From Dictyostelium discoideum (Eukaryota), in assembly GCA_000004695.1 (NCBI GenBank), contig CM000151.3, positions 6,144,001 to 6,208,000 of the forward strand: a stretch of 64,000 bases of DNA, given 5' to 3'. The notes beneath the pieces were generated by a model, which saw nothing but the letters and a program-made list of their open reading frames with translations, was not told the origin of the DNA and did no database searches. Positions 2,971 through 43,386 of the stretch are shown here, one piece after another; the first letter of the stretch is position 1, and the number at the start of each line of letters is the position of its first letter. A program made the position numbers and the translations under genes.

Positions 2971-4346
2971 CATACTAACTAATTTCCTTTATTATTTACA
3001 GAAATATAAACCAATTTACATAAATTGTATGCAGTTTAATCAACCAATAAAAATTTATATAGAAATTTATAGAAAATTAGAGAATTTAGTAAGCACAAAA
3101 AAAGGTGTAAATGAATCATTAGATTTAATAGAATCAAAATATTTTTACGATTTTGATAATAAAGAAGAAGAAGGGATGGAAAAACATTCAGATAAAAATG
3201 AAAATGAAAAAAAAACAATGTGGGTAAAATATAGAGAGTGTATTAATCTCTTTTTTTTTTTTTTATTATTGCTAACACAATTTTTATTTTTTTTTTAAAA
3301 AGAATTTTAATTTTAGATGAAATTGATATTTTAATTGAAAAGTTTAGTAATATATTATATAGGATATTTGAATGGCCAACTAAAGATAGTTCAAAATTAA
3401 TATTATTTGGAATTGCAAATGATTTAGGATTAGTACAGAAATCATTACCAAGATTCGCTAAAATTGGTATGGAGATTGAAGTTTTACATTTTAAACCATA
3501 TACAGAGGAAGAAATTTTAAAGATTTTTCATCACCGTATAGATTTAGTTTTTAAAGAGTATAAATTAAAGGAAGAGGATCAAAAGGAACAATTATTCGAG
3601 CCAGAGACATTGGAAATGATATCAAAACAACTTTCAGTCAATGGTTGTGACATTAGGAAAGCATTTGATGTCATTAGACGTTTAGTCACTTTAAAATTTG
3701 AAAAATATATTGAAAATGCAGATTCAAACGATTCATTGGATGAAGATCCTGATGAGGTCATTGAATTTAAATCACCTGGTGAATATTTCTTTTCAATGGA
3801 TTTAGTACAAGATGTATTGGCTGAATTTTTCGAATGTAAAATAGTTTCAAATATGAAAAGTTTACCACTTCAAGCTCAAATCATTTTATTTTCTTCATTC
3901 CTTCCAGTTTTAAATTATGAAACTGTATGTATTTTTTTTTTTTTTTTTTTTTTATTTTTTAAAATAAAAAAAAAATAAAAATAAAAAAAAATAAAAAAAA
4001 AAATGAAATTTACTAATTTTAAAATTTTTAGTTATATAAATCATATAAAAGTCAATGTTCAATTATTAATTTCCCATTAATGGAAAAGTAAATATATTTA
4101 ATAATAAAAAATAATAATAATAATAATATTTTATTCCTAATTAATTTTTTTTTATTTCTTTTTATTACTTAAAAAAAAAACAGAGCAGATTTTGGTTTAT
4201 CAATTGATTCAATTATTTCAAATGGTTTAATGAAAATAGAAAGTGGTAAAAAAATTGCATTATTATTTTCAAAAGAGCAATTAATTTCTGCATTTAAATC
4301 CTCAATAATATTCGATCCCCTACTAGAAGAATTAAATAATTTATAA
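2641..4346 (+). CDS. Cdc6/Cdc18/Orc1-family AAA+ replication initiator, 5 exons
   Basis: Exons are 2641..2898, 3002..3104, 3302..3924, 4032..4087 and 4184..4346, 1203 nt in total (400 aa). Conserved elements are Walker A GPPGTGKS, Walker B ILILDEIDIL restored by the 3105..3301 intron, sensor-2 GCDIRKAFDVIRR and a winged-helix C-terminus. The 56-nt micro-exon LYKSYKSQCSIINFPLMEK aligns to human CDC6 LYEAYSKVCRKQQ. The ORF-track entries 3029..3298 (+) and 4169..4405 (-) are intron read-through and antisense artefacts of this gene. Confidence 0.8.
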
Positions 4347-17985: not shown

Positions 17986-18013
17986 TAAATCAAGCACAAA
18001 AAAATGTTAGTTG

Positions 18014-18087
18014 TATTCAGAGCGGGAATCGAACCCACGACCTAATCCGTGTTAAGGATTCGTGATAACCGACTACACCATCCGAAC
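18014..18087 (-). tRNA. tRNA-Val (anticodon AAC)
   Basis: The reverse complement folds as a cloverleaf: acceptor GTTCGGA/TCTGAAT with two G-U pairs, D-arm GTGTAGTCGGTTATCAC, anticodon stem AATCC/GGATT with loop TTAACAC, and T-arm GTGGGTTCGATTCCCGC. Confidence 0.8.
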
Positions 18088-38054: not shown

Positions 38055-38223
38055 ATTATTATTATTTTTAAAAATTACATAACAATTTTTATTATTTATT
38101 TAAAATTTACTTATTGAATATTTGTACAACAAAAATGGTAAAAGATCATCAATCCCAGTTTCCTTCAATTCATCAAAATTGAACTATGTAATATATGGTG
38201 AATATAGGTATTAAAATTGAAGA

Positions 38224-38479
38224 TGTAATAAAGTTACTCTATAAAATTAATAGATATTAAATATGCATATTACATTACTAATTATAGTTGACACACATTT
38301 AAATAATATAATAATAATACTGTCAACTCATTATAAATAATATAAATACTAAAGAATAATTTTATTAACAATATTGAATATCATAAATATAAACTAATAT
38401 TAAATAAAGATAACAAAGTATTATTCAATTATATAATTATTAATTATATATATTTATAAAGCTAACAAGCTTTATTACA
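38224..38479 (+). repeat. 5' LTR (256 bp) of a tRNA-targeted Ty3/gypsy-type element (DGLT-A-like)
   Basis: It begins TGTAATAAAG and ends CTTTATTACA, forming terminal inverted repeats. It is about 99% identical to 40576..40813 plus 43282..43299. A putative primer-binding site TTTGGCGACATCG follows it. Confidence 0.8.
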
Positions 38480-38623
38480 TTTGGCGACATCGTCTTTCAA
38501 AAAAAAAAAAAAAAAAAAAAAATATATTATAAATATAAAGTTATCAAATTATTCAATCAATTAAAATTTTACATTAGATTAAATTTAATTTAATAAAATC
38601 TTAAAAAAAAAAAAAAAAAAAAA

Positions 38624-38668
<45 letters not shown>

Positions 38669-38671
<3 letters not shown>

Positions 38672-39946
38672 AGTAATAATGAAAACGTAATTTTTTCGGG
38701 TGATGGAAAAGGTTTATCATTTCGTAAATTCAAACACTTACTCTTATTAATTCATGGCGAGGAAATATCGAAAGCTGATATTATTAGAAAACTAAGAAAC
38801 AATGCATTGGAATATGCCGCAACATTGGATACAGACTTAACAGCAATGGAGATAATTGAAGATCTTAAAGATGCTTTTGGTATTGGTGATAGTGATGATT
38901 TAACAGAATTAACAAAGTTGGGAGAATATAAATACAATACATTAGATATATTAATTGGTAAATTTCTATCAAAATGTTCAGCAGTTGATATTTCAGAAAA
39001 GTTTAAAATACAATTGTTTTATTCAGCTGTTGGTACTGAATTGGGTATTGAAATTACAAAATGTGCACCAAAATCATTAAAAAGAGCAATAGATATTGCA
39101 AAGTCTTGTGAAGATGGTTCAATTCGTATCAAAGGTAGATCAATGTACACTGGTCAATTAGTTGCAAAGACGTTGCAAGAATTTGGTAATCAAAGATATC
39201 TAGGTTCGGGTTCTGGTTATTCTGCAACATCCCCTCAATATGTTACATCTCAAAACGAACAACAATCAATTGAATCTGAAGAAATTTCAACACCAATTTT
39301 TAAAAATCAATATTATAATCGATCACCACAAATGTCACCACAATCATCCCCTTATAAAGCACCACAAAATCAAGTAAATTCAATCACAAAATTTTGTAAA
39401 TATTGCAAAAAGAAAGGTCATGTAATTCAAGAGTGTTGGTCAAAAGATAAAAATAATAATAACAATTACAATAATAGAACTAATTCAATTACAATGGTCA
39501 ATAATAGTACAATTAATTCAATTGGAATAGATAGTATGAATGCAGCTTTATTAATAAATAATAAAAATGTTAGAGGTTTGATTGATACTGGTTCATCACT
39601 TACTATTGTTTGGGAAAGTATTGCTAAAAAGTTAAAATTAAAGATTGAAAATAAACAATATTCTGTTAAATCAGCATCAAATAATGAAATCAAAATCATT
39701 GGAATAAGTAACACAACAATTAAATTAGGTAAAGCATTGGCTAGAGTTAAAGTTAATGTTGTTAAAGATAATGATACATCAATTGATTGTATATTTGGCA
39801 TTGATACAATAATTGGATTAAATTTAGTCATTGATTTTAAAGAAATGATCATTAAGAATCTTGAATTCAATGTTGGTACCAAATTAATATCTAAAGAAAC
39901 CCAACCATGTATACAAACTATATTTAAAACAGTATCTGATTATTCA

Positions 39947-39977
<31 letters not shown>

Positions 39978-40438
39978 CATCAAAATCAGAATTATTAACA
40001 GATACTGATCATTTAATTGAAAATTTTAATTCTCATCATATACTATCAATCAAATCGTGTCCAACTATTGAAGAACAACTACCAATAGATTACGATATTC
40101 CAGAATTCTTATTCCAAGAACCAATAGATTCACCAATAACATCAAATTTACCATTAAAATCAATATCATTAAATCAAACAGAGAATTCAATAATTAAATC
40201 ACAAATAACCTCAATTCAACCATTAATAAGAAATCCATGTACAAATTTATCAAGATTAGATTTTGCTCATAATTTCGCCCAAATTGTAAATAATAACCTC
40301 AAACGTCCTTGTCTCATTAAGGATAATCTTGGTAAAGACCAATTATCACAAATTAATAAAAAAAGTTTCTCGTTCAAATATTCAAGTAGGAGATTATGTC
40401 TATTTACAATCCACTGTTGGTCCAGTAAAGCTCAATAA
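38669..40438 (+). CDS. retroelement Gag-protease polyprotein (589 aa); reverse transcriptase and RNase H are absent
   Basis: A CCHC zinc knuckle reads CKYCKKKGHVIQEC. A retropepsin active site reads LIDTGSSLTIV. No RT or RNase H motifs are found downstream. Confidence 0.7.
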
Positions 40439-40580
40439 ATCTTGGGAAGGTCTTTTCAAAGTACATGAGAGAGTTAGCGATTTAAAATTCAAATTAGTAT
40501 TGGATAATATTAAAAATCATGATGTGTTTTATATTAAAAGATTGAAAAATTTTTTTCAACTAAAAGGGGGGGATATGTAA
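40329..40580 (+). CDS. integrase C-terminal (SH3-like/GPY-F) fragment in a different frame, a remnant of the pol 3' end
   Basis: VGDYVYLQSTVGPVKLNKSWEGLFKVHERVSDLKFKLVLDNIKNHDVFYIKRLK fits the gypsy integrase C-terminal pattern (VGD.V.L...KL...W.GPF.V...V...AY.L.LP...H.VFHVS.LK). The deletion junction lies around 40280-40340. Confidence 0.55.
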   Translation: MVKTNYHKLIKKVSRSNIQVGDYVYLQSTVGPVKLNKSWEGLFKVHERVSDLKFKLVLDNIKNHDVFYIKRLKNFFQLKGGDM

Positions 40581-40813
40581 TAAAGTTACTCTATAAAATT
40601 AATAGATATTAAATATGCATATTACATTACTAATTATAGTTGACACACATTTAAATAATATAATAATAATACTGTCAACTCATTATAAATAATATAAATA
40701 CTAAAGAATAATTTTATTAACAATATTGAATATCATAAATATAAACTAATATTAAATAAAGATAACAAAGTATTATTCAATTATATAATTATTAATTATA
40801 TATATTTATAAAG

Positions 40814-41145
40814 TTTTTTTTTTTTTTTTTGAATTGGATAACGCAATTATTATTTGCTTCTCCTTGAGATGCTAGATCTCATTTTATTTTTTTTTTTTTT
40901 TTACAGGGTCTTTTTGATTAAAACATCTTTTTTGTCCAAACTTTTTTCTAAATCTTTTTTTATTTTATCGTCTGGTTCGTGATTGATGTTTATGACGTAT
41001 TTGAATTGTTTTTTTTTTTTTAATTGAGTTTTATCCACAATTTCGCTTATTTTTTGTAGGCATTTGTGTTGCTTAATATTTGTGGTGTTGTTTGTGATTT
41101 TCATTTTATTTTCTTTCTATCTTTTTTATTTTTCTGATTAACTTG

Positions 41146-41217
<72 letters not shown>

Positions 41218-42940
41218 TATTAAGAAAAAGTAACTGAAGTGAATTATTGTATTTTTTTGAGATGTTTTAGGAAAGTTTCTAATTGCGGGGTGTTGAATGA
41301 ATGATTTTGTGACAACCCCTTGTCTTGTTTTTATCAATTGGTGCGTGGTGTGTTATTTTGTTTTTATATTGTTGATTTATTGAGTAAATTTTATTTGTTT
41401 TTATATTTGTTTCAGTTAGAAGTGCTGCGTCCAAGCTTGTTGTTGTCTAAAACGGTGTTTATTATGCTGGCAGATTGGATGGTGTTGGATCCTTGGACGT
41501 TCCAAACACATATTCTTATTGTGTTTTTCTTTATAGTTTTATTTGGGGTAGATTTTTATCTACCTTTTGAAGTTTCTGGTTTATTTTGTCTTCTAACTGA
41601 TCTTTACTTTGTTCGTTGTGTTGTTGGTCTTGTGTGTTTGTGGGGTTTTTTGATTTATTGATTTGTTTTAGAATTTCCTTGTTGAAGTTGTCTATATCTT
41701 CATCCATTTTTGTTTTTATGCTTTTTTGTCCATATTCACCCAATTTTGGTTTGACTGGTGTTTTGTTGGTCTTGTTTGTTTTGTCTTGTTGTTTCTTTTT
41801 TGGTGTGTTTAACAATTTACTTGGTGAATCGATAATTTTCGATGGTGTACCATAGGTTGGGCTGAAACTCATGATATGTTTTATTGGAGAGGAGAAGAAC
41901 CATTGATTTGAAGGGATTGAAAGTGGGAATTCTATTTTTCTTATTGCATCAGTGTTTGGGCTGGTGAAGTCGAAGATATCATTTACCTCTCTAAGTTTTT
42001 CTTCCGTTGTTAGTCTCTTTGTTTCGCCGTGTTGTTTTATTGGTGTATTGTATGGAGATGGTGGTTCAATAGGTTTTTCTGATTTTGTTTTAATTTCTTG
42101 ATTTTTTATCGATTGGGTATTGATCTCATTCTCTATTCTTGTTAGTTCATCTACGTTTTCTAGTGATGCATCTATTACCTTTTGAGCTGTATCATCTAGG
42201 GCCATAAATGTTTTATCATTAGATGAGGAGGTGATTGGTGGGATAATGATTGTTCTTTTTCCTTGTTTTGGTATTTGTTCTGATGTAGATTTTGGTTGTT
42301 GTTCATCTGATTGTTTTTTATTTTTGTTTTCTTCTTGATTTTCTGGTAATGAGGTTTGATCTCTCCATCCTTTGTTGGAGTGACCAATTAATGTTAGATT
42401 GTCTAGTTCAATGATAGTGTCAAATTCTTCTACGACTCTTTTCACTGTTTTGATAATTAGAGTTTCGCCTTTAATTTCTGATTTAATTAGTTTACATCCT
42501 TCATTTTCTATTACCCATTCTATTTCTGTGAGTGATTTATACCAATCAAAATCTGTATACATATTTTTTGGTCTTATAGTGGTTATAAATTGTCCTTTTA
42601 ATTCTGCATCAAACATATTTACAAAATAGATTACTGTACTAATACTGTCTGTGAGAATTTTGAATGTATTATTACTTTTGATTAAAACATCTTTTTTGTC
42701 CAAACTTTTTTCTAAATCTTTTTTTATTTTATCGTCTGGTTCGTGATTGATGTTTATGACGTATTTGAATTGTTTTTTTTTTAATTGAGTTTTATCCACA
42801 ATTTCGCTTATTTTTTGTAGGCATTTGTGTTGCTTAATATTTGTGGTGTTGTTTGTGATTTTCATTTTATTTTCTTTCTATTTTTTATATTTTTCTTTAA
42901 AAAGTTAAAAATCTGGAAATTTTCTGATTAACTTGGTTCC

Positions 42941-42996
<56 letters not shown>

Positions 42997-43266
42997 TCTT
43001 TTTTATATGAAAAATGAAATAATCAAAAAAAGAGATTGTTGTTGTTGTTTGTTTTTTTTCGATCTGATTATTTTTTGCTTTTTTTTGAAAATTTTGCTAC
43101 GCAAAATTCTCAAAACGAAACAAATAATAAATTACAATAAAGTAAAAAGATGGCTTTTTAAGATAGTTTATTTATTTATTTATTTGTTTTTTAAGTCTTT
43201 TTTATATGAAAAATGAAATAATCAAAAAAAGAGATTGTTGTTGTTGTTTGTTTTTTTTCGATCTCC
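40814..43266 (-). mobile_element. TRE5-A-like non-LTR retrotransposon of short TRE5-A.2 type: ORF1 retained, ORF2 absent, ~2.45 kb, inserted into the 3' LTR of the LTR element
   Basis: A 15-bp target-site duplication TATATATTTATAAAG lies at 40799-40813 and 43267-43281. The minus-strand 3' end is oligo(A) (plus T17 at 40814-40830). The 5' end carries two copies of an A-module-like ~200-bp unit (42995-43194, 43195-43266). The junction is 47 bp upstream of tRNA-Arg, the distance characteristic of TRE5. Confidence 0.7.
41531..42865 (-). CDS. TRE5-A ORF1-like protein (444 aa)
   Basis: A long minus-strand ORF inside the element. Its first 65 codons are duplicated at 40901..41104. It has no catalytic motifs, which is expected for ORF1. 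Confidence 0.6.
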   Translation of the reverse strand: MKITNNTTNIKQHKCLQKISEIVDKTQLKKKQFKYVININHEPDDKIKKDLEKSLDKKDVLIKSNNTFKILTDSISTVIYFVNMFDAELKGQFITTIRPKNMYTDFDWYKSLTEIEWVIENEGCKLIKSEIKGETLIIKTVKRVVEEFDTIIELDNLTLIGHSNKGWRDQTSLPENQEENKNKKQSDEQQPKSTSEQIPKQGKRTIIIPPITSSSNDKTFMALDDTAQKVIDASLENVDELTRIENEINTQSIKNQEIKTKSEKPIEPPSPYNTPIKQHGETKRLTTEEKLREVNDIFDFTSPNTDAIRKIEFPLSIPSNQWFFSSPIKHIMSFSPTYGTPSKIIDSPSKLLNTPKKKQQDKTNKTNKTPVKPKLGEYGQKSIKTKMDEDIDNFNKEILKQINKSKNPTNTQDQQHNEQSKDQLEDKINQKLQKVDKNLPQIKL

Positions 43267-43313
43267 TATATATTTATAAAGCTAACAAGCTTTATTACAA
43301 AGAATTCATCAAA

Positions 43314-43386
43314 GCCCGTTTAGCAAAGTTGGAATTGCGGCAGCCTTCTAAGCTGCAGGTCGTGGGATCGAGACCCACAATGGGTG
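43314..43386 (+). tRNA. tRNA-Arg (anticodon UCU)
   Basis: Cloverleaf: acceptor GCCCGTT/AATGGGT, D-arm GCAA-AGTTGGAA-TTGC, anticodon stem GCAGC/GCTGC with loop CTTCTAA, and T-arm GTGGGATCGAGACCCAC. There is no intron. Confidence 0.8.

Follow-up and report, generated by a model that had tools for sequence, protein, structure and literature searches.

The 64-kb stretch of Dictyostelium discoideum DNA analysed here (the window) holds, on its minus strand between 40814 and 43266, a TRE5-like element in which one block of sequence, including the start of a reading frame, appears twice. Does such a repeat record two insertions lying side by side, a rearrangement of one element, or the way in which this family of elements is built? 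Our analysis points to the last of these, and we put at roughly 0.96 the probability that 40814-43266 is one complete TRE5-A.2 copy, inserted once. TRE5-A is a non-LTR retrotransposon of D. discoideum, formerly named DRE, and TRE5-A.2 is its non-autonomous deletion derivative. The window comes from D. discoideum AX4, and its ORF1 is exactly DDB_G0276011 (XP_643381.1). The TRE5-A.2 element is already annotated in the AX4 reference and is an ordinary copy, and the B-module repeat as such is already known.

Layout of the element

From 5' to 3' the element runs as follows.

43265-43266, minus strand: two extra G at the extreme 5' end
43194-43264, minus strand: partial A unit, consisting of the final 71 nt (3' end) of an A-module (71/72 positions match 42995-43066)
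42995-43193, minus strand: complete A-module unit, 199-nt period
42945-42993, minus strand: A49 run between A- and B-modules
42648-42944, minus strand: 5' B-module with the ORF1 ATG, 297 nt (79 nt of 5'UTR followed by codons 1-72 of ORF1), matching the 5' B-modules of loci L003, L004, L007 and L008 at 100%
41531-42865, minus strand: intact ORF1, 444 aa, exact match to DDB_G0276011
41291-41533, minus strand: ORF2 5' remnant, first ~80 codons, with the N-terminus of the APE endonuclease (...IRICVWNVQG...)
41213-41290, minus strand: ORF2 3' remnant, last ~25 codons, fused to the preceding remnant (aligns to L003 7081-7145 and L002 8216-8260)
41148-41212, minus strand: A65 run preceding the 3' B-module
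40912-41147, minus strand: 3' B-module in its A.2 version, a second copy of the ORF1 start, the module being shortened by 29 nt near its beginning and by ~21 nt at its end
40831-40911, minus strand: C-module remnant, the 81 nt of its 3' end, with an inner boundary ambiguous by about 2 nt
40814-40830, minus strand: oligo(A) tail, 17 nt (T17 on the plus strand), directly after the C-module end ...CCAATTC, as in L003

The published architecture of TRE5-A is AB-ORF1/ORF2-BC with a ~290-bp B-module at both ends (Siol 2011, PMC3159450), while TRE5-A.2 is AB-ORF1-BC, with a large ORF2 deletion and, in the BC region, a loss of 72 bp after which 87 bp of the C-module remain (PMC3159450). Module order, ORF1 identity and the ORF2 and BC deletions in the window copy all bear out the original prediction of a TRE5 element of the A.2 type. 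The module sizes lie beside published values of 200 bp for the A-module, which has promoter activity and is the plus-strand promoter, and 290 bp for the B-module (PMC3159450).

The ORF1 protein is 98-99% identical to other AX4 TRE5-A ORF1 proteins, and a Pfam search found no domain in it, as expected. The TRE5-A ORF1 protein is specific to TRE5-A, without similarity to ORF1 of other TREs. What follows ORF1 had been described as a C-module-like segment (41215-41530), a description that we must replace: the segment is homologous to both ends of ORF2, no similarity between it and the C remnant was found, and the true C remnant lies at 40831-40911. In tblastn the ORF2 of L001, from D. cf. discoideum, gave 88% and 65% identity over residues 1-80 of the 5' remnant; L001 is limited as a reference because of an ORF1 with no more than 65% identity and a GC-rich 5' region, and because neither an A-module nor a 3' B repeat is detectable in it. 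The 5' remnant is also collinear with L003 3708-3936, and the counterparts of the 3' remnant in L003 and L002 lie just upstream of the 3' B-module. At the deletion junction ...CATCAACACC is joined to CGCAATAG, identically in L009, and ~3.1 kb of ORF2 is absent relative to L002 and L003. Compared with other A.2 copies, the window copy has 13 extra single homopolymer bases at 41233-41332 and one more at 41434; these 14 may be base-calling errors of the reference or decay. The A-runs of the window copy, at 49 and 65 nt, exceed the 26-41 nt of other copies.

In the autonomous (A.1) copy at L003, the final 87 nt of the C-module align with the C remnant, whose 81 nt differ from those 87 in the lengths of A-runs, and the BC deletion appears as a 70-nt gap against the same copy. 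The C-module 3' stem-loops (stems I and III) are required for retrotransposition, as probed by mutation of residues C38, A35, C26 and T15 (PMC3159450). Counting the 3' end at 40831 as position 1, all four residues match, and all lie in the two stems of a predicted fold (-11.3 kcal/mol, z = -3.1); on this folding model the remnant includes the 3' stem-loops needed for retrotransposition.

At the other end, the predicted repetition of the A unit holds, the full unit (42995-43193) lying in tandem beside the partial one (43194-43264). Tandem A units are normal in TRE5-A, as seen in a survey of 20 copies. A 5' terminus of G or GG followed by AGATCG, or AAAAAAAAC just after AGATCG, recurs in tRNA-proximal copies, and the extra 5' GG is also found in L002, L004, L008 and L010.

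Single insertion at tRNA-Arg(TCT) inside a DGLT-A LTR

The surroundings of the element contain the following features.

38224-38479, plus strand: DGLT-A left LTR, the empty-site reference
40576-40813, plus strand: proximal part of the DGLT-A right LTR, interrupted by TRE5-A.2 (its distal 18 nt are 43282-43299)
40799-40813: target-site duplication (TSD) beyond the 3' end of the element, TATATATTTATAAAG, identical in all 15 nt to 43267-43281
43267-43281: TSD on the element's 5' side
43314-43386, plus strand: tRNA-Arg(TCT), the target gene (ARAGORN)

When 40575-40813 is joined to 43282-43299, the product is 100% identical (257 nt) to 38223-38479. Removal of the element and one TSD copy thus restores exactly the sequence of the left LTR, and therefore a single insertion into the right LTR took place: the window copy entered the right LTR of a DGLT-A already resident there, in one event that created a 15-bp TSD. 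In the uninterrupted left LTR the 15-nt TSD sequence occurs once only, at 38447. Hallmarks of target-primed reverse transcription are a 3' oligo(A), a TSD of variable length and extra non-templated 5' nucleotides, and the window copy has the A17 tail, the 15-bp TSD, a verified empty site and the extra 5' GG. [quoted passage not shown]

The host element has the traits published for DGLT-A, namely LTRs, a primer-binding site TGGCGACATCGTCTTTC that follows the left LTR after 2 bp, a polypurine tract before the right LTR, and insertion upstream of a tRNA gene at a distance of ~15 bp (13-33) (PMC5006619, PMC5633606). Here the two LTRs agree at every position over 256-257 nt, an exact primer-binding site occupies 38482-38498, separated from the left LTR by 2 bp, AAAAGGGGGGG provides the polypurine tract at about 40562-40572, and 14 nt lie between the end of the right LTR and the tRNA. 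The internal region is deleted, and the sole Pfam domain of a 589-aa ORF (38669-40438) is an aspartyl protease. TRE5-A.2 thus sits within the LTR of a DGLT-A that had targeted the same tRNA gene, and the second LTR preserves the sequence from before the insertion. The locus gives proof of one event at base-pair level, with the TRE5-A site set by distance to the tRNA gene regardless of local sequence.

How could such a copy move? According to published work on the family, the A-module promoter would give rise to plus-strand RNA, the ORF1 protein would contact TFIIIB bound at the tRNA gene, and the ORF2 protein, supplied in trans by TRE5-A.1, would recognise the C-module stem-loops, nick the DNA upstream of the tRNA gene, at a distance of about 47 bp, and reverse-transcribe the RNA in place. 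The B-module is copied within a single RNA at every retrotransposition. Mobilisation of TRE5-A.2 in trans by the TRE5-A.1 ORF2 protein has been published for the subtype (PMC3159450); for the window copy it has indirect support in that the TSD, ORF1 and the C remnant are all intact.

Origin of the repeated block

The direct repeats, on the element's minus strand, are 40912-41212 and 42676-42993. The near-identity originally reported for 40905-41210 and 42668-42995 is real at almost those coordinates: BLAST pairs 40912-41229 with 42676-43014 (E = 2e-119), and a repeat search returned one match of 107 nt at 100% and one of 127 nt at 98%. The aligned core has 4 substitutions in 234 columns (98.3% identity), a 29-nt segment (~42900-42928) and six further nucleotides (CCTGGG) are found in the 5' copy only, and the 3' copy has 3 extra A. 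Both copies contain the ORF1 ATG and ~65 codons, and each block also has the long plus-strand T-run that had been claimed for it (41148-41212, 65 nt; 42945-42993, 49 nt). The non-homopolymer core has no further occurrence in the 64-kb window, where only T-runs give many chance matches, and so the repeat is not due to chance. A self-BLAST of the window returned no further TRE5-A copy, only the internal repeats and hundreds of poly-T chance matches.

What this repeat is not is a tandemly duplicated unit, as had been proposed. The two B copies are spaced by 1764 bp, with ORF1 and the ORF2 remnants between them, and are therefore dispersed direct repeats; only the A units are tandem. Nor does it stem from the A.2-type rearrangement suggested earlier, since full-length A.1 elements also have B at both ends (PMC3159450), as do the A.1 copies lying whole in L002-L004, L007 and L008. 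The duplicated block is the B-module; it belongs to the inherited architecture of the family and is not peculiar to the window copy.

We compared the window copy with nine A.2 copies at other tRNA genes (loci L003 and L009-L015) in an independent assembly (GCA_054883475.1). All nine have the module order and the three deletions of the window copy. Their 3' B-modules align only over B positions 49-269, with an A-run whose length varies (34-41 nt in L009-L013) at the equivalent place before the 3' B-module. The nine copies agree exactly in the ORF2 junction, in the 29 nt missing from the 3' B-module and in the BC deletion, which means that these deletions have a single ancestral origin and spread by retrotransposition; such transmission of the A.2 deletions has been published (PMC3159450). 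L009 also lies at a tRNA-Arg(TCT) gene, and we considered it as an orthologue of the window locus; its flank differs and we rejected it.

Could the block nonetheless be repeated because two TRE5-A elements inserted side by side, an older, 5'-truncated B-C piece (40814-41147) and a newer A-B-ORF1 element whose tail is the run at 41148-41212? TRE-TRE tandems at one tRNA gene are common (PMC5391098), and we see them in L003, L007, L014 and L015; moreover, the long A-run lies exactly where such a tail is expected. Yet a search for the internal TSD that this scenario brings to mind, as proposed earlier, showed that neither sub-part is flanked by one: CCCAAGTTAATCAG just beyond the A-run is unrelated to the 15-mer at 43267, and the only pair brackets the whole unit, with the left LTR as its exact single empty site. 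The same succession of ORF2 end, A-run and B-module is found in the A.1 copies and in the nine A.2 copies at other tRNA genes. The earlier suggestion of two adjacent or recombined copies is thereby refuted, and we regard two insertions as exceedingly improbable.

Only marginally less improbable is that the deleted form was made in place after insertion, for example by unequal recombination or deletion in a full-length TRE5-A.1. B-modules do recombine, as the (B-ORF1-ORF2)n arrays in L005 and L006 indicate, and the concerted evolution that the B copies may display (see below) would fit such exchange; but nine A.2 copies at unrelated loci have exactly the same junction between ...CATCAACACC and CGCAATAG, the same loss of 29 nt from the 3' B-module and the same BC deletion. 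We give an equally minute chance as for two insertions to an assembly artefact in which reads from repeats were mis-joined. The 13 single-base overcalls beside a 65-nt homopolymer are typical of poor reads, but the same architecture is present in the independent assembly GCA_054883475.1 and in the diverged lineage of L002, and cloned, experimentally mobilised elements in the literature agree with it (PMC3159450). What best accounts for the locus is thus a complete TRE5-A.2 copy that came in once, with its B-modules already at both ends; no observation speaks against it, and the ways in which the window copy departs from other copies are minor.

Relatives of the element and possible homogenisation of its modules

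Among known elements the window copy is closest to other TRE5-A.2 copies, with which it shares the AB-ORF1-BC order, the ORF2 junction, ~87 nt of C-module, the 29-nt deletion in the 3' B-module, an intact ORF1, the oligo(A) tail, the TSD and the location upstream of a tRNA gene, at 47 nt and head to head with it. It differs only in its longer A-runs, the 14 extra bases in the ORF2 remnants and its site in a DGLT-A LTR. With the autonomous TRE5-A.1 (about 5.6-5.8 kb) it has in common the A-, B- and C-modules, ORF1, the B-module at both ends, the target preference, and a 5' terminus made of a partial A unit and at least one full A unit, whereas TRE5-A.1 retains an undeleted ORF2 (APE-RT-zinc finger), which adds about 3.1 kb, as well as an entire 3' B-module of 290 nt and the full C-module of 134-137 nt. 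TRE5-B and TRE5-C are related non-LTR elements that target tRNA genes at the same upstream position, and TRE5-C also ends in a C-module. Neither has a 3' B-module (Siol 2011, PMC3159450), and the repeat seen here therefore distinguishes TRE5-A. LTRs such as those of DGLT-A are likewise direct repeats near both ends of a retroelement, with copies nearly identical within an element; the TRE5-A B-modules differ from them in being internal (A on one side, C on the other) and in not being regenerated by strand transfer, and TRE5-A differs from LTR elements in its poly(A) tail, variable-length TSD and APE-type ORF2, all hallmarks of target-primed reverse transcription.

Judging from aligned sequences, we raise as a tentative idea, and rather a doubtful one, that the two B-modules of a TRE5-A element, and likewise its partial and full A units, do not diverge independently. 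We compared the AX4-type lineage (the window and L003) with L002, the lineage of another isolate, which is about 87% identical. At 27 interior B sites the two copies within an element agree with each other and differ from the other lineage, and in the same comparison no interior B site differs by position between the 5' and 3' copies; position-specific differences remain at the module edges only. We found no description of concerted evolution of TRE5-A B-modules in the accessible literature. If the idea is true, master elements would undergo repeated homogenisation, via gene conversion of the repeats at DNA level or template switching from one B copy to the other during reverse transcription, and crossovers in that process would account for the (B-ORF1-ORF2)n arrays of L005 and L006. 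The lead is a small one. If it holds, the "functionless" 3' B-module would have an evolutionary behaviour that can be measured.

Repeated modules and the insertion site

The element at 40814-43266, on the minus strand, is a TRE5-A.2 copy, the type named in one of the two explanations that the original prediction offered. Full-length TRE5-A.1 has the structure AB-ORF1/ORF2-BC, in which a 200-bp A-module is the plus-strand promoter and a C-module of 134-137 bp forms the element end, while TRE5-A.2 (AB-ORF1-BC) has lost a large part of ORF2 (Siol et al. 2011, PMC3159450); its BC region has a 72-bp deletion and keeps the 3'-terminal 87 bp of C (PMC3159450). The window is very AT-rich, and the parts of the locus are as follows.

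38224-43299: whole DGLT-A span, internally deleted, its two LTRs identical
38224-38479: DGLT-A left LTR
40576-40813 and 43282-43299: DGLT-A right LTR, with TRE5-A.2 inserted within
40831-40911: C-module remnant, by alignment to the TRE5-A.1 copy L003
41148-41212: T65 run (plus-strand reading)
42865-41531, minus strand: ORF1, intact, 444 aa
42648-42944: 5' B-module, 297 nt, with the A49 run ahead of it
42945-42993: T49 run (plus-strand reading)
42995-43193: A unit, 199 nt, truly tandem with the neighbouring partial unit
43194-43264: partial second A unit, 71 nt, identical to the full unit at 71/72 positions
43314-43386, plus strand: tRNA-Arg(TCT) (ARAGORN)

The repeated block is real and near-identical: BLAST pairs 40912-41229 with 42676-43014 (E = 2e-119), a repeat search finds one stretch of 107 nt that is 100% identical and another of 127 nt that is 98% identical, and the aligned core has 4 substitutions in 234 columns. 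Segments of 29 nt and 6 nt occur only in the 42.9-kb copy, and the other copy has three extra A. Since the two B copies are 1764 bp apart, they are not the tandem duplication that had been claimed; the tandem repetition proposed for the A-type unit does hold.

Such repetition could reflect two adjacent or recombined TRE5 copies. However, a single exact 15-nt direct repeat, TATATATTTATAAAG, brackets the whole unit (40799-40813 and 43267-43281), and no sub-part is flanked by a duplication of its own, the internal target-site duplication by which separate events were to be recognized. Taking out the element together with one copy of the repeat brings 40575-40813 up against 43282-43299, and the resulting sequence equals 38223-38479 (100% over 257 nt), where the 15-mer is present once; the same window thus contains an empty-site control for the insertion. 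The left LTR is followed, after exactly 2 bp, by the published primer-binding site of DGLT-A, TGGCGACATCGTCTTTC (38482-38498), a polypurine tract stands ahead of the right LTR, and the right LTR ends 14 nt from tRNA-Arg, which is the published DGLT-A distance (PMC5006619, PMC5633606). From the reconstructed empty site and the identification of the LTRs it follows that DGLT-A came first and that TRE5-A.2 later inserted once, whole, into its right LTR. Element and tRNA gene are head to head, with 47 nt between 43266 and the first tRNA base, and the insertion sits at the canonical -47 position, in line with the published TRE5-A preference for 47 +/- 3 bp upstream of tRNA genes (PMC5391098).

DGLT-A may itself be flanked by a 4-bp repeat, AAGA (38220-38223 and 43300-43303), and its 589-aa ORF (38669-40438) retains only the aspartyl-protease domain. 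Beside the second tRNA gene in the window, tRNA-Val(AAC) at 18013-18087 on the minus strand, there is no TRE5-A sequence.

The B-module across TRE5-A copies

We compared fourteen loci, found via ORF2 homologues and cluster members. L003-L008 carry AX4-type TRE5-A.1 copies, L002 a TRE5-A.1 copy of another isolate (about 87% identical) and L009-L015 TRE5-A.2 copies, with one additional TRE5-A.2 in L003. Because L014 and L015 overlap on one contig and contain the same two copies, 14 distinct copies remain, of which five are whole TRE5-A.1 (L002, L003, L004, L007, L008) and nine are TRE5-A.2, eight from six loci of L009-L015 plus the one in L003. All complete A.1 copies have B at both ends and a full C, so that the repeat is an ancestral B-module rather than the A.2-type rearrangement that had been suggested. 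The nine A.2 copies, all elsewhere in the genome, match the window element in their order of modules, at the ORF2 junction, and in both the 29-nt deletion of the 3' B and the BC deletion; the composite thus transposes as a unit.

The B-modules compared were 3308-3602 and 8305-8603 in L002, 2297-2593 and 7187-7485 in L003, and 42648-42944 and 40912-41147 in the window. The L002 and L003 lineages differ at 27 interior B sites, and at 27/27 of these the B copies inside one element agree; no interior site distinguishes 5' from 3' copies, such differences being confined to the edges of the module. The same holds for partial and full A units. Judged from these alignments, the 5' and 3' B-modules appear to evolve in concert, and the within-element agreement of B copies and A units is the pattern that gene conversion or template switching would leave.

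L005 and L006 (GCA_054883475.1, CM142511.1, about 3.018-3.034 Mb) contain (B-ORF1-ORF2)n tandem arrays that have neither A- nor C-modules at their internal joints: each ORF2 end is connected to the following ORF1 by one complete B-module. Such arrays are consistent with B-B recombination, and probably arose when a 5' and a 3' B-module recombined or served in template switching.

Unlike the window element, TRE5-B and TRE5-C are without a 3' B-module (Siol et al. 2011, PMC3159450). A related element in Dictyostelium cf. discoideum (L001, 7262-12260, GCA_054859235.1; ORF1 65% identical; ORF2 85%, measured against the L002 copy) also has none: its ORF2 stop is followed by A16, ~12 nt resembling the B start (CCTGGCAATCTG) and a C-like stretch. 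At its 5' end the element is GC-rich and does not resemble the A- and B-modules, and the nearest 7 kb contain no tRNA gene.

Open reading frames and the C-module remnant

ORF1 shares 98-99% identity with a group of proteins from Dictyostelium discoideum AX4 and exactly equals DDB_G0276011 / XP_643381.1; this copy is therefore already annotated in the reference genome, and the element structure is likewise already known. ORF2 has lost about 3.1 kb. With ORF2 of L001 as tblastn query, 41534-41291 corresponds to residues 1-80, the APE N-terminus (...IRICVWNVQG...), and 41290-41213 aligns, in the full-length copies L002 and L003, to the final ~70 nt of this ORF; the deletion junction reads ...CATCAACACC before the break and CGCAATAG after it. 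Since both ends of ORF2 are matched, the segment 41215-41530, first read as C-module-like, consists of ORF2 remnants.

Against L003, 70 nt spanning the B end and C start are absent, and the remaining C corresponds to 87 nt of L003, figures that agree with the 72 and 87 bp of the literature once variation in A-run length is allowed for. The four residues that Siol et al. mutated (C38, A35, C26 and T15, from the 3' end) all match, with 40831 as position 1, and fall in two predicted stems of a 54-nt C-module RNA (predicted fold -11.3 kcal/mol, z = -3.1).

Alignment to L009 and other TRE5-A.2 copies shows 13 single bases in excess in the window element, all of them within 41233-41332, adjoining the 65-nt homopolymer, and each making a homopolymer or doublet one base longer; a further extra base at 41434 breaks the ORF2 frame. 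Outside A-runs, indels are almost absent from the remainder of the element. These extra bases are probably base-calling errors in the reference rather than biology.

A-unit number and 5' starts

A repeated A unit is the family norm: with a period of 199 nt, whole copies contain between about 1.3 and 7.5 units.

A units per copy
L003, L008, L009-L013: 1.33-1.36
Second element in L003: 2.0
L014, L015: 2.36 and 2.5
L004: 3.33
L007: 7.46

The tRNA-proximal copies begin 47-50 nt from the tRNA, within a 6-nt interval 66-72 nt ahead of the A-unit end, at AGATCG or the following AAAAAAAAC, often with 1-2 extra G before it. This suggests a fixed transcription start within the A unit, about 70 nt before its end, and the extra 5' G would fit a non-templated or cap-derived addition at that start.

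In L007, an extremely 5'-truncated TRE5-A insertion (681-784), containing only a C-module remnant and A11 and flanked by the direct repeat TCGCAATTTTAA, lies between tRNA-Val and the 7.5-A TRE5-A.1, and exemplifies tandem formation at an already occupied tRNA gene.
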